Positions 26,774 to 40,031 of a stretch of 47,582 nucleotides of DNA are shown here, piece after piece (the stretch's first letter is position 1; each line of letters begins with the position of its first letter). The position numbers and the translations under genes are program-made. The notes under the pieces were generated by a model, which was not told the DNA's origin, searched no databases, and saw only the letters and a list, made by a program, of their open reading frames with translations. Origin of the DNA: Candidatus Enterosoma sp. (GTDB taxonomy: Bacteria > Bacillota_I > Bacilli_A > RFN20 > CAG-288); the NCBI GenBank assembly GCA_050874925.1, contig JBNMLQ010000003.1:1-47582 (forward strand). Direction: 5' to 3'.

Positions 26774-28069
26774 ATGAACCATATTGATAAAATGATGTCT
26801 CTTCTTGGAAAGAGCTATTCGACATTCCATGTCGTAGACAATATCAGGAAAGAACTTCTCGAACATGGCTTTGTCGAACTTGATGAGAAGGAAAACTATG
26901 CCCTGGAAGGTGGAAAAGATTATTTTGTGACCAGGAATTCGACTTCCGTCATCGCTTTCAGGGTGCCTGTGAATCTTAAGGATGCCCACATGCAGATCAC
27001 GGCTACACATAATGATTCTCCGACCTTCAAGATCAAGCCGAATCCGGTGAAGAAATCCTGTGGGCTTCTCCAGCTCAATACGGAACCCTATGGAGGACTC
27101 ATCATCAATACCTGGTTTGATAAGCCCCTTTCCATCGCAGGAAGGGTCTTTGTCCGTCAGGGAAATAAGATATCTTCCCATCTTCTTTGTGTGGACAAGG
27201 ACCTTCTTGTGATTCCGAATGTCTGTATCCATATGAACAGGAATATCAATTCCGGATATAACTATAATGCTTCCGTCGATACGATCCCTGTTCTTGGAAT
27301 GGAGGAAGACTTTGATTTCAATCAGTTTTTGCTCTCAGAGCTTGGCATGAAGGATGGGGAAGTCATCAGTCATGACCTGTATCTATATAATCGGGAAAAG
27401 CCTGCTCTCTTAGGTCTCCATGATGACTTCCTATGCAGTGGAAGAGAGGATGACCTGACGGCAGCTTATTCGGCATTGTTCGGCTTTTTGGAAGCCAAGA
27501 GCGAAGACCATATCTCCGTCTATGCTTCCTTTGACAATGAAGAGGTCGGTTCCCTTACCAAACAGGGCGCCAATTCCACCTTCCTGCAGGACAATCTGAA
27601 GCGTATTCTTTCTGCTTTGGGAAAGCAGGATGAATTCCAAAAGGCAATGGCTCAGTCCATGATGCTCAGCATCGACAATGCCCATGCCAATCATCCGAAT
27701 CATCCTGAGCTTTCTGACAAGACTACGGATGTCAGGCTCAACAACGGCATCGTCATCAAGTTCAATGCCAATCAGTCTTATACATCGGATGGTATCTCTT
27801 CGAGTGTCGTGAAGTATCTCTGCAAGAAGAATGGCTTGAATTATCAGGAATTCACCAATCGCTCTGACCTGCGTGGAGGATCGACGCTCGGAAACCTCTC
27901 CGAAAGCGAAGTCTCCATCACCACCGTCGATATCGGCATCGCCCAGCTTGCCATGCATTCCAGCTATGAGATGCTTGGAAAGAATGACATCGAAAACATG
28001 GTGCTCTTGACAAAGTCCTTCTTCGATAGCAATATTCTCTTTGAAGGACAGGACGTCATCATCGATTGA
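26774..28069 (+). CDS. M18 family (aspartyl) aminopeptidase
   Basis: ATHNDSP, EPYGG, TWFDKPLSIAGRV, FDNEEVGS, DNAHANHPN, GGSTLG, QLAMHS. Confidence 0.94.
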   Translation: MNHIDKMMSLLGKSYSTFHVVDNIRKELLEHGFVELDEKENYALEGGKDYFVTRNSTSVIAFRVPVNLKDAHMQITATHNDSPTFKIKPNPVKKSCGLLQLNTEPYGGLIINTWFDKPLSIAGRVFVRQGNKISSHLLCVDKDLLVIPNVCIHMNRNINSGYNYNASVDTIPVLGMEEDFDFNQFLLSELGMKDGEVISHDLYLYNREKPALLGLHDDFLCSGREDDLTAAYSALFGFLEAKSEDHISVYASFDNEEVGSLTKQGANSTFLQDNLKRILSALGKQDEFQKAMAQSMMLSIDNAHANHPNHPELSDKTTDVRLNNGIVIKFNANQSYTSDGISSSVVKYLCKKNGLNYQEFTNRSDLRGGSTLGNLSESEVSITTVDIGIAQLAMHSSYEMLGKNDIENMVLLTKSFFDSNILFEGQDVIID

Positions 28070-28185
28070 TAAAGAAAAAGTTGCTGTGGATATCAGATTG
28101 AACATCTGAGAAACAGCAACTTTTTTGATGTGCTTTTCGGAAAAACAAATAAAAAAGCCTGCATGATGCAGGCAATTTTCCGATA

Positions 28186-28262
28186 TGGTGGGCCTTAGTG
28201 GGCTCGGACCACCGACCTCCCGCTTATCAAGCGGACGCTCTAACCAACTGAGCTAAAGGCCC
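28186..28262 (-). tRNA. tRNA-Ile (GAT), T-loop TCCGAGC
   Basis: GGGCCTT/AAGGCCC acceptor stem, loop TT-GAT-AA, CCA end; promoter TTGACA-17-TATCAT at 28306-28278; terminator at 28151-28173. Confidence 0.95.
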
Positions 28263-28408
28263 AAATAGGCGAGAATTATGATACTAAATCCAAGCGCTGA
28301 TGTCAACAAGAATTTTCAAACTTGTGGTAAAATGTTGCCAAAGGCCATAAATGATGAGGAAAAGGATTTTATTGCAATAAAAAGGAAATTCGTCAAAAAA
28401 ACGTAAAA

Positions 28409-28474
28409 AGTTAGAAAAAGCTAACTAAAAATATTGCTTTTTCTCTTGTATTATGGCCGTTAGGATTCTAAAAT
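28409..28474 (+). promoter_or_regulatory. Ferredoxin promoter TTGTAT-17-TAAAAT with upstream palindrome AGTTAG-N6-CTAACT
   Basis: Palindrome at 28409-28426, -35 at 28446-28451, -10 at 28469-28474. Confidence 0.55.
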
Positions 28475-28505
28475 GATTCTAGAAGTACATTGGAGGTACA
28501 TGAAA

Positions 28506-28694
28506 ATGACTAAAGTTACTGTTAACAAGGATCTGTGCATCGGTTGCGGTGCCTGCACTGGAATCGCTGCTGATGTTTTCCAGTTTGCCGATGATGGCAA
28601 GGCTGAAGCTGTCGCTCCTGTCACTGCTGACAACGAAGCTTCCGTCGAAGAAGCTGTCGCTGGCTGCCCGGTTCAGGCCATCGAAGCTGAATAA
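28506..28694 (+). CDS. Monocluster [4Fe-4S] ferredoxin
   Basis: CIGCGAC ... CPVQAI; RBS GGAGG. Alternative start at 28500. Confidence 0.95.
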   Translation: MTKVTVNKDLCIGCGACTGIAADVFQFADDGKAEAVAPVTADNEASVEEAVAGCPVQAIEAE

Positions 28695-28712
28695 TTTCAA
28701 CCTTTTGAATTG

Positions 28713-28764
28713 AAAAGCTGTCAGAGAGGTTAGGTCAAAGGCCTGCTTGTCTGGCAGCTTTTTT
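28713..28764. terminator. Bidirectional terminator between ferredoxin and the HEPN-like gene
   Basis: AAAAGCTGTCAGA ... TCTGGCAGCTTTTT. Confidence 0.7.
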
Positions 28765-28768
28765 GCTT

Positions 28769-30277
28769 CTATTTTTGCTTTGGCTTGTTTTCAGCAGGTG
28801 CTTGCGATGGTTGATGCCTGAAAATCGAGCGGACAAAAGCCATGATTTTAGATATAAAGATGAATAATGGATGCTTTTGCTTCTTAAAGGCAACCCTGTA
28901 GATTTGGATTCTTCCGCTGATGTCTTTTATGAGTTCGCCTTGCAGATCTTTTAAATAGAATCCATTGATTTTTAACTGATACTCCTTTGGTAAATCGACG
29001 TCTGCGAGGCAGAAGTTCTTGTGTCGGGTTTTAAAATGCCCAATCTTAATGTTTTGGTTTCCATCGAATACAAAAATCCTAAGACTTTTGCAGACCGTCC
29101 TTCTTGTCCTATTGTCTTTGAAACTAAAGGCATTTATCACCCACTTCATATCTTCAGGATGATAGAGCTTGACTACGTTTTCAAGCGTTCCAGGTATTGT
29201 ATTTTGCAAATTTTGATAGGCTGTCCAGCTTTTAAGGATGCGATGGGGGAATTTCTCTTTTTGCTTGAGTCTCCTATCTATAATTTTATAAGTGATTTTC
29301 ACGAGACGTTGACAATAAGAGTCTAAGATCGATTTGGCAAAATCGTCTATCGCATTCAAGACATGAATGTATTGCCCTTTTTGCCTGAGGCATGCGTCTT
29401 GAAGAATGAACAAAGCTTCAAAAACTTCATCCAATGTGAATGACTTTGTTTTCTTGTCTTTTTTATAGTTATCATACAGACATACGCCATGGCACCACAT
29501 GTTTCTAAGGCTGATCAGTTTGTCTTTGTCCTCTTGACTATTGAAAATCTTGGATGCTTTTTTTGCTGTCTTTTTAAAAGGCTTATACTTTGTTTTTGCC
29601 TGGTCGTTGCTTACGCTGTCTTGTTCAAAACTGAAGAAAATTTTGGATAAGTGGTTTTGTAGCAGTAGATTCATTCTGTCAAGGGCACACTTATTCATCC
29701 CATCCGGATAGGAATAGTCTGGCTTGTAGCTTCTTGCTTTACTTGTATAAGCTTTCGAAATTAAACGGTGGAGAGCATCCATTTCCTTTCCGGACTGTAC
29801 ATGGATGTCACAAATCTTCTGGGTCAACAAAGCACCGATAAAAGCCTCTATGGATAATTTGTTTGCAAGCAATGCCACGATATGGAAGGCTCCATACAAT
29901 GTCAGCTCTCCGTCTTTGGAGATGGAATAAAAAGGCTTGACGATAGATGAAAGCAAGGGAACCATAGTTTCGTCAATGAATATTGGATCTGATGCATATA
30001 GATGGGCATTGTCGTTTCTTATGGAAAGGAAAATGCGCATGAGCTGGCTGAACTGATTCAAATCAAAGGAGGAAAAGCTGGGATAATAAGATAAAATCGA
30101 AGAGAACTGTGCTTGTGTCAATTTGTTTCCGATGATGAGATGAAGGGTTGTTCTGAAGAGCCTATTAATTTCAGCACACACTCCCATGAATGCCGATTTA
30201 CATATAACGATGGAATCTGTGATTATTGAATAGGAATTATGAACAGTCTCTTCCAGATGGAGTATTTTGCATTTCAT
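28769..30277 (-). CDS. Hypothetical 502-aa protein with two RNxxxH (HEPN-type) motifs; putative RNase
   Basis: R87-NDNA-H92 and R258-NMWC-H263, both at ends of predicted helices; basic, AT-rich gene. The ORF is solid, the function is inferred. Confidence 0.65.
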   Translation of the reverse strand: MKCKILHLEETVHNSYSIITDSIVICKSAFMGVCAEINRLFRTTLHLIIGNKLTQAQFSSILSYYPSFSSFDLNQFSQLMRIFLSIRNDNAHLYASDPIFIDETMVPLLSSIVKPFYSISKDGELTLYGAFHIVALLANKLSIEAFIGALLTQKICDIHVQSGKEMDALHRLISKAYTSKARSYKPDYSYPDGMNKCALDRMNLLLQNHLSKIFFSFEQDSVSNDQAKTKYKPFKKTAKKASKIFNSQEDKDKLISLRNMWCHGVCLYDNYKKDKKTKSFTLDEVFEALFILQDACLRQKGQYIHVLNAIDDFAKSILDSYCQRLVKITYKIIDRRLKQKEKFPHRILKSWTAYQNLQNTIPGTLENVVKLYHPEDMKWVINAFSFKDNRTRRTVCKSLRIFVFDGNQNIKIGHFKTRHKNFCLADVDLPKEYQLKINGFYLKDLQGELIKDISGRIQIYRVAFKKQKHPLFIFISKIMAFVRSIFRHQPSQAPAENKPKQK

Positions 30278-30321
30278 TGGACAATGTCCCGGCTTTGTTC
30301 TAAATCTATCCTTTCTGTTTG

Positions 30322-30350
30322 TTGACTATCTTATATTGCTTTTATAGAAT
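30322..30350 (+). promoter_or_regulatory. sigma-A promoter TTGACT-17-TAGAAT, divergent from the HEPN-like gene
   Basis: -35 at 30322-30327, -10 at 30345-30350; no convincing + strand CDS downstream. Confidence 0.75.
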
Positions 30351-30355
30351 AATAG

Positions 30356-30511
30356 CAAGAAGCAACCGCCTAGGGCATTAAGCCCCCTTAGCAGAGATGC
30401 GCTAGATCTCTGCTAATCGAATAACAGCGTTAACGGCTCGCTTCTTATTTTTTATTGTTGCCGTTGTCCTCGTTGTGATTGCGAGGATTACGAACAATAA
30501 GAATAAGAAGC
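30356..30511 (+). ncRNA. Candidate structured non-coding RNA
   Basis: Begins at the predicted TSS; stems 30357-30363/30440-30446, 30373-30376/30382-30385, perfect 11-bp 30388-30398/30406-30416, and a long alternative hairpin 30440-30511. Confidence 0.6.
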
Positions 30512-30812
30512 ACAACCAGAAGGATAAAGCAAAAGGTATCCAGGCTTCATTTTCTCGTAACATCCATATTTAGTGTCTGGAAATCATCTTCAGTGGTTGC
30601 TCTCACAATATTATTGACCTTAAAATAGCAAAATTAATCATCGGATTGTCTCAGGTTATCAACTTTTTGATTTTCATCTCGATTTTGAAGAGCTGAGCAA
30701 AAGCCTTCATGGGTGGTAAAAAGGTTGAGATGTATGATAAATGTCCTGCCAAACAAACATGGAAAGTCCTACATGACCAATTCCTGGTCTTTGGAAGAAC
30801 TGTTTTCTCAGC

Positions 30813-31862
30813 TTATTTATTCCTAAGATACTTGATGTTTCTTGCTGAACCGATTTTGATGATTTGCCTGCTCTTTACCATTCTGCCAAGTACTGCCTCG
30901 ATTGTCGTTGGACTTACGTCAGGAAGGATTTCACAAATCTCTTTTTTTGAAATAGGTGCAAGACTATTTAAAACTGTTGCTTCAATCCTCGCGGATTTTG
31001 AAATGCTGCCATCATTGATGACGGCAAATCTTTTATCCAATTCCTTATAGCACATATAAAGCGTTGATAAGAAATTCTCCATAAACGGAGAATAATTATT
31101 TTTGTTCTCATGCCAGCTTATGGATGATTGTCGTAATGCTTCGTAATAGCAGCTTTTATATTTGTTTATCTGTTCTTCGAAAGAAATATATTTGCCTGCG
31201 TCAAAGCCATTTTTATATAGCAGCAGAAGGGAAAGAAGTCTTGACATTCTTCCATTTCCATCTCGAAACGGGTGAATACATAAAAAGTCTAAAATCACGC
31301 ATGGGATAAGCAGCAGCTGATTTATTTCGGAATCGTTTGCTGCCGACATATATGCCAATACAAGCTGTTCCATCGCGTGCTTTGTTTCACTTGCTGGGGT
31401 AGGGGAAAACCGAATCCTTCTATTTCCGTGTGAATCTATTTCTATAATCGCATTGTCAAAATCCTTGTATCTACCGCCATATTCGTAACCAGTTTCAGAG
31501 AGTAATACTTCATGAAGATGTAGAATGTCCGACTCGTTAAAATCGATATACTGATTGTTGGTATGGATTTCATTCAATGCGTCGCGATAACCGGCGATTT
31601 CAGCTTCGTCATGGTTTAGAGGCGCACTGCTTTGTGTAACGATAGCCTTGATGCGCTCATCGCTCGTAACTATGCCCTCAATGGCGTTGGAGTTCTTTAC
31701 CGATTGAATCTTAGCTATTTTTTCAAGTTCCGTAAAAATTTTCAAATGGTCGGCCTTTCTTATGCTAGCCATTGTTTTCAACGAGTAAATGCTCATAGCC
31801 ATATTAAACGTTTTTGTCGAAACAGTGCCGTTTTTCAAGAAGGAATAATCAAATTTATGCAT
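30813..31862 (-). CDS. Fic family protein (class II-type) with C-terminal wHTH
   Basis: Canonical HPFRDGNGRMSR active site, N-terminal inhibitory motif SNAIEG, C-terminal ISKKEICEILPDVSPTTIE. Confidence 0.93.
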   Translation of the reverse strand: MHKFDYSFLKNGTVSTKTFNMAMSIYSLKTMASIRKADHLKIFTELEKIAKIQSVKNSNAIEGIVTSDERIKAIVTQSSAPLNHDEAEIAGYRDALNEIHTNNQYIDFNESDILHLHEVLLSETGYEYGGRYKDFDNAIIEIDSHGNRRIRFSPTPASETKHAMEQLVLAYMSAANDSEINQLLLIPCVILDFLCIHPFRDGNGRMSRLLSLLLLYKNGFDAGKYISFEEQINKYKSCYYEALRQSSISWHENKNNYSPFMENFLSTLYMCYKELDKRFAVINDGSISKSARIEATVLNSLAPISKKEICEILPDVSPTTIEAVLGRMVKSRQIIKIGSARNIKYLRNK

Positions 31863-32065
31863 AATGAGCCTCTTAATCTGCATATATTATAGCAAAAATA
31901 ATGCAGAAATTCATAAGGAATATGCATATTATTTTTTTGGTATCATGCAGATACTGGTTTTTTGAATCATGTACCATAAATTGCATGACCTTGTTCTTTT
32001 TTTTCTTGTGATGTCAATCGACTTTTAGGTGTGCCTTATGATATGGTGATGGCAGCGAGTCACAT

Positions 32066-32518
32066 CTATTGTAGATATGGATAATCTCTTGATTTGTCGA
32101 TGTATTTCGACATCTTATCATTCGGATTGGCAGGTACGACTTCTTTGTCGATTTTAGGGTCGTATTTTACAAAAGTATTACTGTCATCTACCCATATCAA
32201 TACCTTCTCAACTTCCCAAAAGGATTTGCCTTCGAATACCTTGGCACGGAGAAAACGATACAAAAGTTCGTCCATGGAGTTCCCTGTGATGTGGTATGAA
32301 TCATCATAGTTCATGACATCCCCTGTATCATCTAGCAGGTAGTCTGCCGTGTTAGTTGTCTTATCCAGTCTTCCTGCAAAGCGACGGATGAAAAAATGGC
32401 AGGAATTTTCCTTATCGTCATAGTATCCTTCGCACCAATAGACGTTGCCTTTGTAATAAAGACAAGATTCATTTTTCCATCCTGTGTTTAAGAAAATGTT
32501 GAGTATACCGTTAATCAT
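32066..32518 (-). CDS. Hypothetical acidic/aromatic protein (150 aa)
   Basis: RBS GGAGGT; FLRAKVFEGKSFWEVE..IWVD looks like a conserved motif; function unknown. Confidence 0.7.
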   Translation of the reverse strand: MINGILNIFLNTGWKNESCLYYKGNVYWCEGYYDDKENSCHFFIRRFAGRLDKTTNTADYLLDDTGDVMNYDDSYHITGNSMDELLYRFLRAKVFEGKSFWEVEKVLIWVDDSNTFVKYDPKIDKEVVPANPNDKMSKYIDKSRDYPYLQ

Positions 32519-32599
32519 GATAACCGACCTCCGTTAGGTAGATGTAATACTCCTTAATCAAATCAGGCGTTTTATGTCGATTTGTCTTGATAAAAATCC

Positions 32600-32815
32600 T
32601 TCAGATGGTATTCAGTCTGTATCTGCTTTGACGGTCTTGCAGCAGTTCCCAGACGACATTTGCCTTTTCTGCTGCCTTGCCTTCATAACCTTCAAGGCTA
32701 CTGATTTTTTAATACGGCATTCTCCGCTTTCAGCTGTTCGTTCTCTGATTTGAGTTGCTCGATTTCGTTTTCTGCCGTATCCGTGTTCTCTCTTTTCTCT
32801 GTTTCAGGCATCGTG
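32600..32815 (-). mobile_element. Degenerate IS3/IS150-family transposase remnant (OrfA C-terminus/OrfB N-terminus junction)
   Basis: EIEQLKSENEQLKAENAVLK leucine zipper ending in an A6 run, then shifted-frame VALKVMKARQQKR and KANVVWEL..YRLNTI; stops present and no DDE domain. Confidence 0.6.
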
Positions 32816-33013
32816 CTTTCCTCTTTCGCATTACACTCTACCTGATTCTCGAGAAGAATGGAATAGTTTCTGCATAGATTTGTTTTGTGGATTGCCATCA
32901 TCCATAGAAGTTTGATTGGTTTGGTATGATTTTTGTCATTCTTCCAATCAAATGAAAACTGCAGCAGGGGCAGCTGCTGCAGCCTTCAGAAAAGAAAAGA
33001 TTAAGAAAAAGGT

Positions 33014-35941
33014 TTATCGGACCTTTGTCTCCGTGTCAGGATTGTCCTTCTTATGGAATGTCAGGAACAATACGATCGCTCCATAGATGAGCATGCCACC
33101 GGCAAGGACACAGTCGATGACAATCATGAAGATTTTCCAGTCAGACATTCTATATCCCGTGATCTCGCTGTTGGTTGCACAGGAGTTGCATACGGTATAG
33201 AGAATGTTGTGTGTAGCATTGCGGATGGCAGTGACCTGTGTAGCGGAAGTGTCCTTGAGGCTTGGATTCTTGCCTTCCTGATTTAGGACCAGGTCGCCTC
33301 CGGCACGGATCATCTGATTCTGGTTCATATAGCGGGAGAGGTTATAGTCGGTGACGACTTCGCCACGGAATCCCCACTCTTTTCGCAAGATGCCGGTCAG
33401 GAGATTGTAGTTTCCTCCTGCCCAGACGGTTCCGATTCTGGTGAACGAAGACATCATGGCGGTAGTCTTGCCTTGCTTGACGATCATCTCAAACGGCTTG
33501 AGATAGATTTCTCTCATCGTCTGTTCGTCAAGCCAGTTGAGGCAGCCTTCGGTGTCGCGGTTTGTTTCCTGCTCGTTGATGGCAAAGTGCTTGACGAAAC
33601 AATAGACACCCTTGGACTTGGCTCCTTTGACGACTTCTGTTCCCATGATTCCGGAAAGATAGGGATCTTCGGAATAATATTCCCAGTTTCTTCCTCCAAA
33701 GGGTGAACGATGGACATTTACGGCCGGTGCATACCAGCCGGAATATGGAAGATGATCGCCCCTTTCGTTTCCGATGAGTCCTTCGTTTCCGATGAGGACA
33801 CCCATCCTGTTTGCGAGTTCCTTGTTCCATGTGGAGGCAAGGACTGTCTCGGCAGGATAGGAAGCGCATCCATAGACGGGCACGGTATCGCTCATGGCCA
33901 TGAAGGAAGTGAAGCCGCTTGGGCCGTCAGGCTCGTTGGTGACAGGCTTTCCGATGTTCTCGATGGCGATGGAGCCATAGGCGCCTTTTCCGATGAGCGT
34001 GCTCATCTGCTCGACGGTGAGCTGATCAAGGAGCTCATCCCATTTTTTGTCATCGTAGTCAAGACCGACTAGGTCAGCAAGTTTCAATGTCGGATTATCG
34101 ACGACCTTATCAGCCTGTGAAGGCATCTTGTCTTCGGATACCTGCCAAGGTTTTCCTTCGTCATTCTTGGAATATGTGAGGGAACTGATGAAGTCGGAAG
34201 TGACATTTCTTTCCTTATCCGTAGGAGTGGTAGGGAATGTATTATCCATATCATTTCTTTTCATGACGGATACTTTGGAAGAAACATCATCGAATAGGTT
34301 GGTGACTTTGGTTCCGGTCGTCGTATCGTTTTCAATACGGATGTCTTTACCTAGGGCAAAGTCTTTGTTTGCTTCAAAGACATGTGCATCATGTCCGATA
34401 TGAAGGGTGTAGTTACCCTTTTCAAGGATATAGCCTTTGTAATCACTGCTGTTTTTTCCTGAAAAGTCATAGGACTTCATGTCTTCCGCTTTGAGGGTGA
34501 GGGTCAGCGTCTCACTTTCATTCGGTGCAAGGAGCTTGGTCTTGGCAAAACTTCCAAGATTGACATAGCTCTTTTCGATGCCGCCTGCCGTATATGGTGC
34601 TGTGTAGTAGAGTTCGACGACATCCTTTCCAGATACGTTTCCTGTGTTCTTGACGGTGACGTGGACCTGGAACTCATGCTCGATGGAGTCAAAGGCAGTT
34701 TCACTAGGCCAGCTGACGCTCCATTCGAAGTTGGTGTAACTCAGTCCATATCCAAAGGGGAAGACGACATTCTTTTGATACCAGTCTTCACCTGCAGCGC
34801 CCATGTCGTGGGCCTTGGTCTCATAGTAACGATATCCGCTGTAGATACCTTCTTCATATTCGACGAAGCGGTATCCGGTATCGGCATTGTTGTTTAAATA
34901 GGCGTTTCCGTTTTCCTTGTTGTTGTTTCCGAAGTTTGGCCATGTGGGATCGTTCTTGAAATTCCGTACATAGGTGTCGACGGTGTGTCCGCTTGGATTG
35001 ACTTTTCCGGATAGAACCTCACCTAGGGCTGAAGCACCCTTCTGGGCGGGAAGTCCCATCCAAAGGCAAGCCTTGATCTTTGGCTGATAGGCATAATAGG
35101 TCGGGTCATCCAAGAAGCCGAGTTCGATGGTCTGGGCTGTGTTGAGGACGACGATGACGTCATCGAAGTTGTCACAGGCTTCCTTAAGCATGTCCGTCTC
35201 GTTTTGGTCAAGCTGCAGATAGTGGTCAGAGGCGTTTCTTGCTCCGTCGACTTTTGGAGAATCCTCCTTGAAGCCTGTCTTCATCGTCCTGGGAAGGTCA
35301 TATCCTTCGCCTCCGGAACGGGAGATGACGACGATGGCAGCATCATGGTATTTGGAGTAGGAGGAGCGAAGGCTTGCATCATAGGAGGAGATGGGAGTCT
35401 CACCTGTGATCATGCCAGAAAGGATGGTTCCCATGGCAGGGGCTTTGTCTCTTCCGTTTCCGCTCTTGCTGTTGTTCTTATAGAAGGCTTCCATGGTCGG
35501 ATTGACATCAAATCCGGCATTCCTAAGAGAATCGTAGATGCCGATGCTGGAATCCGTGCTTGTGGCGGAGGAACCAGATCCACCAAGGACAGGATTGACA
35601 GAATTCTTTCCGAAGACCGTGACACTCCGCTTTCCTTCTTTGAGTGGTAAAGTGTTGTCTTCGTTCTTTAAAAGGGTGATTCCTTCCCTGACGACGTCTT
35701 TTCCGAATTCTTCGGCAGCGGTCTTGGCTTCGGCTTTGCTTTCATAATCGGCAACATAGGTTCCCTTGTCTTCACCCTTGATGGCTTTATCTCCGCCAAA
35801 GGCGATGTCAAAGGTACCGGAAATCAAAGGGTTGAGTGTGATGACAAGGGATACGACGAGGGCTAAGACGAGGACGATGGGACAAATGATCATCCAGATT
35901 CTGGTCTTCTTGGTATGCCACATTTTCTTGAATAGGTTCAT
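33014..35941 (-). CDS. GH3 glycoside hydrolase (inverted domain order) with N- and C-terminal TM anchors
   Basis: EGITLLKNE, SRSGGEG, VNPSGHTVDT, FPFGYGLSYT, Fn3-like domain, DGPSG, GRNWEYYSEDP, KHFAIN, nucleophile VTDY. Confidence 0.95.
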   Translation of the reverse strand: MNLFKKMWHTKKTRIWMIICPIVLVLALVVSLVITLNPLISGTFDIAFGGDKAIKGEDKGTYVADYESKAEAKTAAEEFGKDVVREGITLLKNEDNTLPLKEGKRSVTVFGKNSVNPVLGGSGSSATSTDSSIGIYDSLRNAGFDVNPTMEAFYKNNSKSGNGRDKAPAMGTILSGMITGETPISSYDASLRSSYSKYHDAAIVVISRSGGEGYDLPRTMKTGFKEDSPKVDGARNASDHYLQLDQNETDMLKEACDNFDDVIVVLNTAQTIELGFLDDPTYYAYQPKIKACLWMGLPAQKGASALGEVLSGKVNPSGHTVDTYVRNFKNDPTWPNFGNNNKENGNAYLNNNADTGYRFVEYEEGIYSGYRYYETKAHDMGAAGEDWYQKNVVFPFGYGLSYTNFEWSVSWPSETAFDSIEHEFQVHVTVKNTGNVSGKDVVELYYTAPYTAGGIEKSYVNLGSFAKTKLLAPNESETLTLTLKAEDMKSYDFSGKNSSDYKGYILEKGNYTLHIGHDAHVFEANKDFALGKDIRIENDTTTGTKVTNLFDDVSSKVSVMKRNDMDNTFPTTPTDKERNVTSDFISSLTYSKNDEGKPWQVSEDKMPSQADKVVDNPTLKLADLVGLDYDDKKWDELLDQLTVEQMSTLIGKGAYGSIAIENIGKPVTNEPDGPSGFTSFMAMSDTVPVYGCASYPAETVLASTWNKELANRMGVLIGNEGLIGNERGDHLPYSGWYAPAVNVHRSPFGGRNWEYYSEDPYLSGIMGTEVVKGAKSKGVYCFVKHFAINEQETNRDTEGCLNWLDEQTMREIYLKPFEMIVKQGKTTAMMSSFTRIGTVWAGGNYNLLTGILRKEWGFRGEVVTDYNLSRYMNQNQMIRAGGDLVLNQEGKNPSLKDTSATQVTAIRNATHNILYTVCNSCATNSEITGYRMSDWKIFMIVIDCVLAGGMLIYGAIVLFLTFHKKDNPDTETKVR

Positions 35942-36692: not shown

Positions 36693-39600
36693 TTATTCTT
36701 CTCTCTTCTTCTTGAAGACGAGACCGAGAGCCAAGGCAGAGAGGCCTAAGACGGCAGAAGAAGCGGCGATGATGCTTCCTCCGCAGCCGGAAGACTTCTG
36801 ATTGGTGAGCTCTTCAATCTTCTTTTCAAGATCGGCAATCTTATCGGCATTACTCTTGTCACCGGAATCCTTTTCGGCCTTGAGGTCGGCAAGTTCCTTT
36901 TCAAGATCGGCGATGGTCTTTCCGGCTGCTTCGTTGACGACGAGGGTGATTTCCTGAATGCCATCTTCATAACCATCAGCGGAAGCGATGACCTTGAAGG
37001 TATACTTTCCAGCGGCCGTCGGAGTACCGGAGAGGACACCGGTCTTCTCATCGATGGTCAGTCCTGCAGGAACGTCTCCTTCCAAGGAATATTTGATTTC
37101 GGAGTAGACGGTCTTGGTATTCACTTCGGTGGCAAAGCTGACGCTATAGGCGGAACCGACGGTGGCAGAAGTGATTTCGGCATTCGGATTGATGACCTTG
37201 CTTCCATAAGGAACGTCCATGGCGTGGGAGTTGCAGACGGTGTAGAGGATGGCTTTGCAGGCTCTTCTCATGGCAGCGACCTGAGTCGGCTTATCATCAT
37301 GGTTGGAATCGTCAGAAGCCCATTTGCTGAGTCCGACGCTGTTGCCTGTGGAGTTGATGCCACTGGTCAACAGGCAGTCTCCGCCGGCACGGATCATTTG
37401 GTCGACGTTGAGGAAGCCGTAGATGCTGATGTCGGTGACGACATAGCCCTTGAATCCCCATTCGTCTCTCAGCGTGGTGGTAAGTAGGCTGTAGTCTCCG
37501 CCTGCCCAAGTGCTTCCGATTCTGGAGAAGCTGGACATGCAGGCACCTGCCTCACCTTTTTCGACGGCAATCTGGAATGGCTTGAGATAGATTTCACGGA
37601 GAGCCTGTTCGGTGACCCAGTAACCGGTTGCAGAATGTGCATCGCTGGAACCTCTGTATCCACTGATCTTCCATTTTCCATCGGCGCCGACGCTGATGCC
37701 GACACCGCCTCCGTCCTCGTGGAGGGCATAGTGCTTGATGAAGAGGAAGGCTCCCTTGGATTTGAGACCGAGGGACTGGTTGGCAGCCATCTCGCCGGTG
37801 AGGAGCGGATCTTCAGAAAAGTATTCAGTGATTCTTCCTTCAAACGGTGAACGATGGATGTTCATGCCTGGGGCATACCATCCGGTATAGGCATAGATTT
37901 TTCCACCGACATCGGTGTCTGTTCTGTCAGAGCATCCCCAGAGAGCCTGGTCTCCGACGACCTTGCCCATCTCATAGGCGAGTTCCTTGGAGAAGGTGGA
38001 GGCGATGACAGGCTCAGCAGCAAAGGAATTGAACTTCGAACCTGCGGTACCTGTACCTGTCCATCCTTTTGGACCATCGGTGTCGAGAGAATACGGCTTG
38101 CCGATATAGTCGATAGCCTGTGTACGGAAACCGGCGTTGGTGATGAGATCCTTCATTTCATCGAGGGTGAGCTCGTCAAGGAGGGCATCCCATTTCGGAT
38201 CGTCATAGTCAAGACCGACGAGGTCTTTGAGCATGACATCGGCTGTTGGCTTTGCGGCTCTGTCTTCGGCGGTCATGTATTTCGGCATCTTGTCGGTGTA
38301 CCAAGGGTCTGTGGTCTTGTCGCTGACCTGGTAGGCAAGAGCATCATACTCAGCTTGGGTGAGCTTGGCTTCGGCTTCGGTCTCTTCTTTCGGGAAGGTA
38401 CCGGCAAAGTTTGCTCTGGTGAAGGAACCGACATCATGTTTCTCGGCGGCTGTTTTGGTGACGTCATCAAAGGCATTGGTAATCTTGTTTCCGGTGACGG
38501 CTGTATCGGCCTTGGTAAGCTCGGCAAGATTGTAGGTGGCAGTAAGACTGTCGTCCTTGATGTCGTGAGCGCTGGTACGGAAGGAGAAGGTATAGTCACC
38601 CTTGTCGAGGACATAGGTCTTGGCGGCTGTGTAGTCATAGCTTGCCATGTCATTGACATCGACGGAGAGTCTCAGATATTCGGATTCGCCAGGATTCAGG
38701 AGGCCGGTCTTGGCAAAGTCACCTAAGACGATGGAACTCTTTTCAATCTTGTTGGTCTTGTCATAGTCTGTGTATGGAGCAGAGTAGTAGAGCTGGACGA
38801 CTTCCTTGCCTGCTCTATCTCCTTTGTTGGTGACTTTGACGACGAAATTGAGGGTGTTTCCGACCTTGATGGCATCGCTTGCCGGTTTCGAGACGATGCT
38901 CCATTCGAAATTGGTGTAGCTTAAGCCATAGCCGAATGGATAGGAGACCTGGGAATCATAGTCGAAGCCGCTGTAATTGCCCTTCTTTGCTTCATAATCG
39001 GCCGTTTCCCAATAACGATAGCCCACATAGATGCCTTCGTCATAGTCGCAGAAGTAGGAGTCGGCCGTTTCTTCGCCGTCATCCTTTTTTCCATTGTTGT
39101 TCTTATCAACCCAGTATCTCGGATTTCCGTTGATGGGGTCACCTTTGACGTTGATGTTGTTGTAGGAAGGATCCTTGGTGAAATCGGCAGCATAGGTGTC
39201 GACGAGATGACCGGATGGATTGACTTCGCCGTTGAGGATTTTTCCGACGGCAGTGAAGCCGTTGTCACCAGGCTGACCGATGACGAGGATGGCATCTACG
39301 CCGGTATCCTTCTTCAGCGTATCAAGTTCGACCGGAGTGGAATTGTTGATGAGGACGATGACCTTGTCAAAATGAGCCTTGGCTTCATCGATGAGATCAT
39401 ACTGTTCCTTGTCGAACTGAAGGGAATGGGTTCTCTTGGCATCCGTTCCGCTGCTTAAGACGATGATGGCAGCATCAGAATAATGACCGAAGGAAGCTTC
39501 CAATTTGCTCTTGCTGTCTACCTTCTTGAACATCTCGTTGTAGAGAGAAATGTCGTTGGAATAAAGCGCATTGCCCTTGTCATCCGTTTTTGCAAGAAGT

Positions 39601-40031
39601 TCCTCGTAGGCATTTTTGACGACCGGATTGACCATAAAGCCGGCATCTTCAAGGGAAGAATATAAGTCAGCCGTGAGCTTGACCTTGCCTGCAGAAGCGT
39701 CACCTGTGGAGTCGGCACCGCCCTGTGGCCTGGCTCCCCTGTAACCTAAGAGTGTGACTCTTCCGCCTGCTGTGCCCTTTTTCGAAGAAAGCGGGAGTGC
39801 GTTGTTGTCGTTCTTCAGAAGAACCATGCCTTCTTCGGAAATCTGTTCGTTGACCTTGAGTCCTGCTTCCAAGGCTTCTTCCTTGGAAGAATAATCGGAC
39901 TTATAAGTCCTTTCGCTGCTGTCGTTTGCTTTCAACAGCTTCCCTCCGGCCTGGAACCCCTGGCTTTGACCGAGCGTGAAAACGGTCGCTGCCATTGCCA
40001 ACACTGCTAATGAGACGATACTTTTTTTCAT
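36693..40031 (-). CDS. Secreted GH3 glycoside hydrolase with Ig-like domain, coiled coil and C-terminal membrane anchor
   Basis: Signal peptide, EGMVLLKND, YPFGYGLSYT, DGPKG, EYFSEDP, KHYA, VTDI, VPAGLTID..GVLSGTPT, tail GCGG-TM-KKKREE. Confidence 0.95.
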   Translation of the reverse strand: MKKSIVSLAVLAMAATVFTLGQSQGFQAGGKLLKANDSSERTYKSDYSSKEEALEAGLKVNEQISEEGMVLLKNDNNALPLSSKKGTAGGRVTLLGYRGARPQGGADSTGDASAGKVKLTADLYSSLEDAGFMVNPVVKNAYEELLAKTDDKGNALYSNDISLYNEMFKKVDSKSKLEASFGHYSDAAIIVLSSGTDAKRTHSLQFDKEQYDLIDEAKAHFDKVIVLINNSTPVELDTLKKDTGVDAILVIGQPGDNGFTAVGKILNGEVNPSGHLVDTYAADFTKDPSYNNINVKGDPINGNPRYWVDKNNNGKKDDGEETADSYFCDYDEGIYVGYRYWETADYEAKKGNYSGFDYDSQVSYPFGYGLSYTNFEWSIVSKPASDAIKVGNTLNFVVKVTNKGDRAGKEVVQLYYSAPYTDYDKTNKIEKSSIVLGDFAKTGLLNPGESEYLRLSVDVNDMASYDYTAAKTYVLDKGDYTFSFRTSAHDIKDDSLTATYNLAELTKADTAVTGNKITNAFDDVTKTAAEKHDVGSFTRANFAGTFPKEETEAEAKLTQAEYDALAYQVSDKTTDPWYTDKMPKYMTAEDRAAKPTADVMLKDLVGLDYDDPKWDALLDELTLDEMKDLITNAGFRTQAIDYIGKPYSLDTDGPKGWTGTGTAGSKFNSFAAEPVIASTFSKELAYEMGKVVGDQALWGCSDRTDTDVGGKIYAYTGWYAPGMNIHRSPFEGRITEYFSEDPLLTGEMAANQSLGLKSKGAFLFIKHYALHEDGGGVGISVGADGKWKISGYRGSSDAHSATGYWVTEQALREIYLKPFQIAVEKGEAGACMSSFSRIGSTWAGGDYSLLTTTLRDEWGFKGYVVTDISIYGFLNVDQMIRAGGDCLLTSGINSTGNSVGLSKWASDDSNHDDKPTQVAAMRRACKAILYTVCNSHAMDVPYGSKVINPNAEITSATVGSAYSVSFATEVNTKTVYSEIKYSLEGDVPAGLTIDEKTGVLSGTPTAAGKYTFKVIASADGYEDGIQEITLVVNEAAGKTIADLEKELADLKAEKDSGDKSNADKIADLEKKIEELTNQKSSGCGGSIIAASSAVLGLSALALGLVFKKKREE

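Follow-up and report, generated by a model that had tools for sequence, protein, structure and literature searches.

The 47,582-nucleotide stretch analysed here (the window; positions 1-47,582 on the forward strand of contig JBNMLQ010000003.1, assembly GCA_050874925.1, Candidatus Enterosoma sp.) contains, at 30322-30511 on the plus strand, a promoter followed by a structured RNA, next to a gene for a 502-amino-acid (aa) dual-HEPN protein. Judged from sequence, this promoter and RNA probably constitute an antitoxin-type antisense small RNA (sRNA) gene of a type I toxin-antitoxin-like module whose toxin has decayed at this locus. They belong to a repeated unit whose intact copies encode a small hydrophobic peptide on the opposite strand, and the unit is a candidate new type I family of one small clade, of a known kind and outside the named families. 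An earlier description of the same DNA (hereafter, the original prediction) had proposed the RNA as an antitoxin or scaffold of the HEPN protein, in the manner of AbiF or type III systems, or as an antisense regulator. The repeat structure, the conservation of the open reading frame (ORF) and its signals, the folds and the complementarity were computed directly.

Promoter and structured RNA of the repeated unit

The letters and positions given in the original prediction for the promoter, the stems and the U-tract were all borne out (Table 1). The promoter TTGACT-17-TAGAAT matches the consensus at 10 of 12 positions and is the top promoter-like site of the region 29800-31200. That region contains six promoter-like sites, as compared with 4.5 ± 2.1 in shuffled sequences, a count that by itself is at chance level; the TTGACT-17-TAGAAT site was rated above chance because TTGNNN-17-TAGAAT is present at the identical position in all four copies of the unit. 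Both ends of the sRNA are deduced, the start from the -10 box. As originally drawn, the RNA at 30356-30456 folds into a multibranch structure (-33.1 kcal/mol, z = -4.12, with 0 of 200 shuffled sequences folding as well), and six T residues at 30448-30453 provide the U-tract. When the RNA was extended to 30520, the 3′ strand of stem P1 paired instead with 30493-30511, and the long hairpin of about 70 nt that had been anticipated became the winning fold (-60.5 kcal/mol, z = -6.42, 0 of 200 shuffled sequences as good). Since the GCTTCTTATT strand is common to P1 and the long hairpin, only one of the two can form, as the original prediction had stated.

The consensus fold of the four copies contains the 11-bp stem with two compensatory pairs (G-C to A-U and U-A to C-G) and one mismatch, and a covariance model of the RNA (R1) scored 119-132 bits in each of them. 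The long hairpin is also retained in all four copies, and it is more stable on the plus strand in every case (by 6.4, 10.8, 7.3 and 7.8 kcal/mol), an advantage that could be attributed to the GT-rich composition of that strand. A count of G.U pairs in this hairpin (10 pairs with G.U versus 2 with A.C) was discarded, because the structure had been predicted on the plus strand and the count was therefore biased. The sRNA strand of the intact copies carries terminator-like sites further downstream, in the parts that are antisense to the start codon and to the beginning of the mRNA; thus, a longer read-through form of the sRNA is possible, and the two exclusive folds may correspond to terminated and read-through isoforms.

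With an nhmmer profile built from three copies including that of the window, the match in the window spans 30311-30679 (model positions 2-418) and has E = 1.4e-104, a score that is partly circular. A BLAST search of 30280-30660 against relatives revealed a second copy on contig C37 of the same genome, with 82% identity, and two in the genome of a sister species of the same genus (G006), one on contig C72 (91%) and the other on C41 (80%). A further G006 contig, C91, overlaps the unit by 28 bases at its start. The copy number is two in the own genome and at least two in G006, and BLAST detected the unit in 2 of the 67 genomes of the family. A scan of 150 other genomes of the order with R1, run with stricter filters and with G006 not among the genomes listed (130 unlisted), gave no match. 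Exact 20-mer scans, the only type of search applied to the metagenome collections, returned three stretches in genome contigs, two in metagenome contigs (matching the window and C37 copies without differences across the 380 nt shown) and none in viral contigs. Two of the stretches in genome contigs were the G006 copies, and the third, on a Paenibacillus chromosome, showed no similarity past the 20-mer and was taken as chance. A blastn search of the whole unit against phage and plasmid collections matched none of them.

The C37 and C41 copies occupy orthologous loci (90.75% identity over 1427 bp), between genes that we take, from their translations, to be phosphopentomutase-like (deoB-like) and nucleosidase-like (pfs-like). 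The C72 copy adjoins ORFs that we assume to be transposase-like, judging by eye and without a Pfam scan. The four copies, from two closely related species, amount to two orthologous/paralogous pairs. The C37 and C72 copies share 87-91% identity in all segments but one, the sRNA body, where the value of 76/105 is due in part to the alignment. The C72 copy also carries a 12-nt inverted repeat, TTAAAATAATAG / CTATTATTCTAA, at positions 31-42 and 363-374 of locus L002, in the -10/start regions of the convergent promoters; consequently, the ends of this unit are nearly symmetrical, a feature that may stem from mobility or just from the likeness of the promoters.

The peptide gene in the intact copies and its decay in the window

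The intact copies carry on the minus strand a promoter of their own, a strong ribosome-binding site and an ORF encoding a hydrophobic peptide of 39-40 aa. The peptide promoter is TTGAAA-18-TAAAAT in C37 and TTGATA-18-TAAAAT in C72 (10/12 consensus matches each), and the two convergent promoters score 10/12 each in C37, with 10/12 and 9/12 in C72. In C37, a leader of about 112 nt contains the Shine-Dalgarno (SD) sequence GGGAGAAGGGG, followed after 8 nt (spacing read from the sequence) by the ATG of the 40-aa peptide METLKDLLGLFAFILLVVLLILIVRSPRNHNEDNNGNNEK; the C72 peptide, METLKDLLGLLAFILLVVLLILIVRNPRNHNEDNDNNKK, has 39 aa. The peptide consists of an 18-residue apolar run and a polar tail, with a best 15-residue Kyte-Doolittle mean of 3.75. 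In the C41 copy, which is cut at the contig end, the last 22 codons remain in frame despite a 6-nt deletion, and the C37 ORF has a 3-nt insertion, whereas indels in the non-coding part of the RNA are of 1-2 nt. The remaining two frames of the ORF region are not kept open across the copies. Codon changes between C37 and C72, counted by hand, comprise three synonymous and four non-synonymous ones.

The stop codon of the peptide ORF falls in the 3′ strand of P1 of the sRNA, and the last Lys/Asn codons correspond to its U-tract. Because of this overlap, full complementarity between sRNA and mRNA covers the last three codons and the whole 3′ untranslated region, and in an sRNA reading through the U-tract into the long hairpin it would extend to the entire 3′ half of the ORF. 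The C37 leader is predicted to pair GGCCC with the SD sequence. Furthermore, a perfect 9-bp long-range pairing between the leader and the 3′ end of the same transcript, AGCAACCGC/GCGGTTGCT, is predicted in the full-length C37 mRNA, as judged from two informative sequences (one C-to-U change, with a wobble pair kept). The AGCAACCGC motif is also present at the 5′ end of the sRNA, in the same sense as in the mRNA leader, which predicts competition for the 3′ end of the mRNA rather than pairing between sRNA and leader.

In the window, the homologous frame reads MDVTRK*SLDTFCFILLVVLLILIVRNPRNHNEDNGNNKK*, and the tblastn and profile matches to it contain one TGA. This codon is a stop in the host, as indicated by a tRNA-Trp with anticodon CCA and by long ORFs with full Pfam coverage under table 11. 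In the alignment, a gap of 31 columns lies opposite the start/SD region of the intact copies, another gap of 15-17 nt falls in the leader, and the -10 box of the peptide promoter is degraded (ATTAAT versus TAAAAT in the intact copies), the site being missed by the promoter scan. The sole intact ORF over the element, a 53-aa ORF at 30402-30563 on the minus strand, was rejected as a candidate gene: no SD sequence was found by reading, and its frame is not open in C72, nor from a comparable start in C37.

The sRNA gene of the window is intact, and its promoter is nearer to the consensus than in G006. When compared with the C72 copy, identity is 95/104 in the sRNA body and 52/56 in the rest of the long hairpin, and it is 18/32 in the sRNA promoter, 15/25 at 30513-30537, 19/69 in the 5′ part of the ORF with the SD region, 31/76 in the leader and 18/31 in the peptide promoter. 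The conserved core, 30353-30512, is identical at 147 of 160 positions (92%), as compared with at most 60% outside it, and its boundaries coincide exactly with the sRNA start and the base of the long hairpin; the promoter hexamers of the sRNA remain near the consensus although the spacer has diverged. The explanation is either selection on a plus-strand RNA that spans the hairpin or the end of a gene-conversion tract at this point. Since the peptide gene is a pseudogene and the sRNA gene alone is intact, the window RNA is best described as a putative orphan antitoxin. Its retention may be due to cross-neutralisation of the C37 paralogue and/or to gene conversion; 22 consecutive bases at the 5′ end of the RNA are invariant, and a perfect duplex with the C37 toxin mRNA is expected.

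Regarding the features by which type I systems are recognised, a small (<60 aa) hydrophobic ORF with translation signals is present in the paralogues and broken in the window, and a separate antisense RNA gene with its own promoter is present as a prediction. In the intact copies, two convergent promoters would face each other. One would drive a minus-strand mRNA of about 330 nt, with a leader of about 112 nt, a strong SD sequence and the 39-40-aa peptide with its apolar segment of transmembrane length; the other would drive the plus-strand sRNA, antisense to the 3′ part of that mRNA. If it acts like the antitoxin RNAs of txpA/RatA, bsrG/SR4 and yonT/SR6, the sRNA would bind this 3′ part by base pairing, resulting in cleavage of the duplex and/or refolding that keeps the SD sequence buried, and through AGCAACCGC it may compete with the leader for the 3′ end of the mRNA. 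We infer transcription, transcript ends, toxicity and neutralisation in this scheme.

Table 1. Coordinates of the repeated unit and of neighbouring features in the window
Feature	Position	Strand	Basis and details
Repeated unit (type I toxin-antitoxin-like module), ~370 bp	30311-30679		Homology to intact copies
sRNA promoter	30322-30350	+	-35 TTGACT 30322-30327, 17-nt spacer, -10 TAGAAT 30345-30350; 10/12
Predicted antisense (antitoxin-type) sRNA, short form, ~100 nt	30357-30456	+	Three-way junction closed by P1, then U6 tract
P1 stem	30357-30363/30440-30446	+	Fold prediction
GCC/GGC stem	30368-30370/30435-30437	+	Fold prediction
GGGC/GCCC stem	30373-30376/30382-30385	+	Fold prediction
Perfect 11-bp stem	30388-30398/30406-30416	+	Fold prediction
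Long alternative hairpin, 72 nt	30440-30511	+	Inside the peptide frame of the minus strand
Decayed homologue of the 39-40-aa peptide gene	30445-30567	-	ATG 30567-30565, in-frame TGA 30549-30547 (codon 7), TAA 30447-30445
Remnant promoter of the peptide mRNA	30633-30662	-	TTGATA 30662-30657, 18 nt, ATTAAT 30638-30633; hexamers read from sequence
Dual-HEPN, Cas13-like gene, 502 aa (context, outside the module)	28769-30277	-	Motifs and model
Variable island	28972-32876		Most of the HEPN gene, module, Fic gene, 150-aa ORF
Fic gene	30813-31883	-	PADLOC SoFic, E = 1.3e-31
150-aa ORF	32066-32518		No family match

The dual-HEPN neighbour and competing explanations

The 502-aa protein had been labelled dual-HEPN in the original prediction, and this label is right, because the protein contains two Rx4H motifs (residues 87-92 and 258-263) and its structural model aligns best to Cas13. 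Residues H92, N259 and H263 are invariant in nine aligned proteins, and the first arginine is missing in two distant homologues. The AlphaFold model, based on the nine-sequence alignment, has a mean confidence (pLDDT) of 87.4. Among the first 15 matches of a structural alignment, the top 14 were all Cas13 proteins (Cas13bt3, 7vti_A: Z = 16.2, root-mean-square deviation 3.9, 246 aligned residues), and the fifteenth was the PbAbiF-ncRNA complex (8vz6_B, Z = 6.9). A Foldseek search of the model against the PDB yielded no match at E<=0.001, the best being Cas13h1 (E = 0.11), and the protein was not recognised by Pfam, NCBIfam or PADLOC. Judged from this model, it may be a compact RNase of the Cas13/AbiF type. 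Only three relatives were found in a search of 5.8 billion proteins, and homologues are present in 8 of the 66 other genomes of the family. In two of these (G051, L016 419-1501; G078, L018 386-1462), an ORF of 358-360 aa without a Pfam family directly precedes the HEPN homologue, with zero gap, and a periplasmic-binding-protein gene follows; the ORF and the HEPN homologue may form a conserved two-gene unit.

G006 contig C2 matches the window at 27347-28971 and 32877-34397 (94-95% identity), without 28972-32876, and has the HEPN gene reduced to its final ~200 nt. Because this syntenic contig is devoid of the segment, 28972-32876 is a 3.9-kb variable island near the tRNA-Ile gene (28186-28262), and it is an island of defence type. 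A conserved operon of Fic and dual-HEPN genes was considered and rejected, since the ~360-aa ORFs next to the homologues encode DNA methylase, periplasmic-binding or Pfam-less proteins. Between the tRNA-Ile and HEPN genes, a 73-aa ORF (28473-28694, plus strand) with a CxxCxxC pattern is presumably ferredoxin-like, judging by eye. Beyond the island, the minus strand carries two large glycoside hydrolase family 3 genes (33014-35941 and 36693-40031) in which the C-terminal domain precedes the N-terminal one (Pfam order); one of them also has He_PIG/Ig-like domains.

The proposal that the RNA is an AbiF- or type III-like antitoxin or scaffold neutralising the adjoining dual-HEPN protein now appears very improbable, the distribution, motif, repeat and strand tests all being against it. 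The neighbour is indeed a genuine HEPN RNase-like protein, Cas13-like with a weaker AbiF likeness (Z = 6.9), the RNA is adjacent and highly structured, and AbiF toxins are described as neutralised by a cis-encoded ncRNA (PMC12737573, PMC12373285). Like AbiF/RCd22 and other type III RNA antitoxins, whose toxins are of HEPN or ToxN type, the element combines a structured RNA of about 100 nt, a SigA-type promoter and an adjoining HEPN-family gene. However, occurrence of the RNA independently of the HEPN gene, named in the original prediction, together with failure to bind or neutralise the protein, as grounds against its own proposal, is what we found: three of the four copies with flanks (C37, C72 and C41) have no HEPN gene. 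Moreover, the own genome holds one copy of the protein and two of the RNA, and in G006 the gene is reduced to a 3′ remnant and the RNA is present in two or more copies. Inspection of the flanks of HEPN homologues, also suggested in the original prediction, detected the RNA within ±1.5 kb in none of the eight genomes (best non-self R1 score 16.2 bits versus 127 for the window), and the closest homologue (51% identity) has instead a DNA methylase gene 24 nt upstream. No non-coding motif shared between the HEPN flanks of the window and those of the homologues was detected at E<=0.05, and Rfam gave nothing at the homologue loci. The abiF motif (RF03085) was not detected in 30100-30900 at E<=10 or, at E<=5, in seven homologue loci and the window locus, no CRISPR array is present in the window, and no tandem repeats were detected in 28000-32600 (score 30), with one unrelated array in the whole window. 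Additionally, the RNA and the HEPN gene are on opposite strands, whereas RCd22 is reported upstream of AbiF on the same strand, co-transcribed and with two abiF motifs (PMC12373285). The divergent layout noted originally thus holds geometrically (RNA on the plus strand, HEPN gene on the minus strand), but the unit is an independent repeated module. The antisense regulator mentioned as the other option is upheld in a different sense from the one intended: the RNA runs antisense to the gene for a small hydrophobic peptide, decayed here, and any minus-strand transcript reading through towards the HEPN gene would likewise be complementary to it. That this convergent RNA has been exapted to gate minus-strand transcription into the HEPN gene, by pairing, RNase III or interference, seems unlikely. 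The Fic gene, the peptide strand of the element and the HEPN gene all lie on the minus strand. Since the HEPN gene begins 80 nt past the element, transcripts from the Fic gene or from what is left of the peptide promoter would have to cross the element to reach it. On the minus strand, the scans call no terminator-like site from the Fic stop to the element and no promoter-like site from there to the HEPN ATG; therefore, the sRNA may act on read-through transcripts. Retention of the RNA gene during decay of the peptide gene also agrees with such a role, but it is explicable for the core by gene conversion, TTGCTA-17-TATAAG (read by eye; it fails the T6 rule of the scan) could be the HEPN gene's own promoter, and HEPN homologues elsewhere do without the element. 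It is rather unlikely, more broadly, that the antisense RNA gene outlived its toxin and was kept for a new job, either trans-immunity against C37 or the antisense gate from Fic to HEPN; the latter would mean that a type I antitoxin had been enlisted as a regulator of a HEPN RNase.

It is distinctly unlikely that the unit is a relic or plain repeat, with hairpins serving at most as a bidirectional terminator for the Fic and HEPN genes, unused promoters and an untranslated small ORF. Promoter-like sites are as common in this AT-rich spacer as in shuffled sequences, and the distribution is narrow: the unit is present in 2 of 67 family genomes, and it was detected neither in the 150 further genomes scanned from the order nor in phages, plasmids and viral contigs. 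Some copies lie at contig ends, one adjoins the ORFs that we assume by eye to be transposase-like, and the 12-nt inverted repeat joins the -10/start regions in C72. Against this, both promoters are near-consensus at conserved positions in the intact copies, the SD sequence, ATG and open frame survive indels of 3 and 6 nt, the 11-bp stem shows compensatory changes, and the sRNA promoter hexamers are kept in the window despite the divergence of the spacer. A harmless small membrane protein, accompanied by a plus-strand RNA acting either in trans as an sRNA or in cis as an ordinary antisense RNA, without toxin-antitoxin behaviour, is a decidedly improbable explanation. The peptide resembles none whose toxicity is experimentally established, many proteins of this small membrane type are non-toxic, and the chromosomal C37 locus is syntenic between two species, but the multiple copies, the patchy occurrence, the copy with a dead toxin and a kept RNA, and the convergent 3′ overlap are hallmarks of type I systems as described for T1TAdb (PMC8594479).

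Several observations weigh against the reading as an antitoxin-type sRNA gene with a decayed toxin. The in-frame indels keep all three frames, and the leader fold of the C37 mRNA is no better than that of shuffled sequences (z = -0.94). The minus-strand mRNA has merely a weak U-rich tail, and the proposed terminator of the sRNA is a three-way junction followed by U6 and not a simple hairpin, the terminator scan being silent in the window. Covariation, a check suggested in the original prediction, is present as the two compensatory pairs of the 11-bp stem, but both this and the coding evidence are low in power, because there are four copies from two close species. The sharp boundary of the conserved core could reflect a gene-conversion tract rather than selection. 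The Rfam search that had also been suggested yielded only five tRNAs in the window at the gathering score and no family for the RNA, type I antitoxins included; at E<=10 in 30100-30900, chance-level rows of miRNA/CrcZ type alone appeared, and at E<=1 the loci L002 (C72) and L003 matched no antitoxin or other family.

The peptide, likewise, matches no toxin family of Pfam or NCBIfam at E<=10, where unrelated chance-level rows alone were obtained; the Fst toxin family is absent from the Pfam scan at this threshold, the two chance-level rows belonging to other families. A word-based search gave no candidate relative, and the best score of an Atlas search (0.80) was uninformative. The single match of a HMMER search against 1.84 billion representatives, a 448-aa protein with five matched stretches, was taken as low-complexity. 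A peptide profile run on 400 genomes of the class matched weakly in 15 genomes other than its own (E = 2.8e-4 to 0.009), and the best of these matches, the sole one inspected, is an unrelated 80-aa membrane protein. In viral contigs, 158 matches to peptide patterns were obtained and 0 were confirmed. Relatives of the peptide were not found in these protein searches, the predicted-toxin ORF tables of the T1TAdb and Fozo papers lying outside the comparison.

Comparison with known type I systems

The intact copies resemble txpA/RatA, bsrG/SR4, bsrE/SR5 and yonT/SR6 of Bacillus subtilis, each of which is described as a hydrophobic-peptide mRNA with a convergent, 3′-overlapping antisense RNA (PMC8594479, PMC3834814, PMC5848175). 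The antisense RNAs are given as 100 nt for SR6 and about 180 nt for SR4, and the sRNA predicted here has about 100 nt. According to Jahn and Brantl, bsrG encodes a 38-aa hydrophobic toxin and SR4 is complementary to the 3′ end of its mRNA, acting through RNase III-dependent decay and a refolding that buries the SD sequence, and the antitoxin promoter outdoes the toxin promoter in strength (PMC3834814). A strong antitoxin promoter and location in accessory regions are further points of resemblance to the systems as reported for B. subtilis, and sequestration of the SD sequence by the leader is predicted for the C37 mRNA. Unlike these systems, however, the unit shows no similarity to them in the RNA, by sequence or covariance model, nor in the peptide. 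Moreover, its sRNA is closed by a three-way junction beside the U-tract, there is competition for the same strand from a 72-nt hairpin within the ORF, and the toxin of the window copy is lost.

With fst/RNAII (par) of Enterococcus plasmid pAD1, the unit shares convergent RNAs meeting at their 3′ ends, a peptide with one hydrophobic segment followed by a charged tail, and short sequence repeats near the RNA ends that are involved in pairing. The fst mRNA and RNAII have a bidirectional terminator in common. RNAII is reported to pair through two separate regions, at its 3′ and 5′ ends (PMC3834814), whereas AGCAACCGC has the same sense in sRNA and leader here and is not complementary; an Rfam match is also lacking. 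A leader predicted to pair with the 3′ end of its own mRNA is shared by the intact copies with hok/Sok and aapA/IsoA, in which, unlike here, the antisense RNA lies inside the 5′ region of the mRNA and the hosts are Gram-negative; for the present unit, the pairing is a prediction. The T1TAdb paper names SD/anti-SD pairing, terminator stem-loops and 5′-3′ long-distance interactions as key mRNA determinants, applies the last of these to several families and counts 13 type I antitoxin families in Rfam (PMC8594479).

In summary, the tempting link between the RNA and the HEPN protein is removed, a point of importance given that the nuclease, for its part, resembles a very compact protein of the Cas13/AbiF type. 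If confirmed, the unit would represent a new sequence family of type I toxin-antitoxin modules within an uncultured lineage with small genomes, and the window copy would provide a natural case of a dead toxin beside a living antitoxin, useful for asking why orphan antitoxin RNAs persist.

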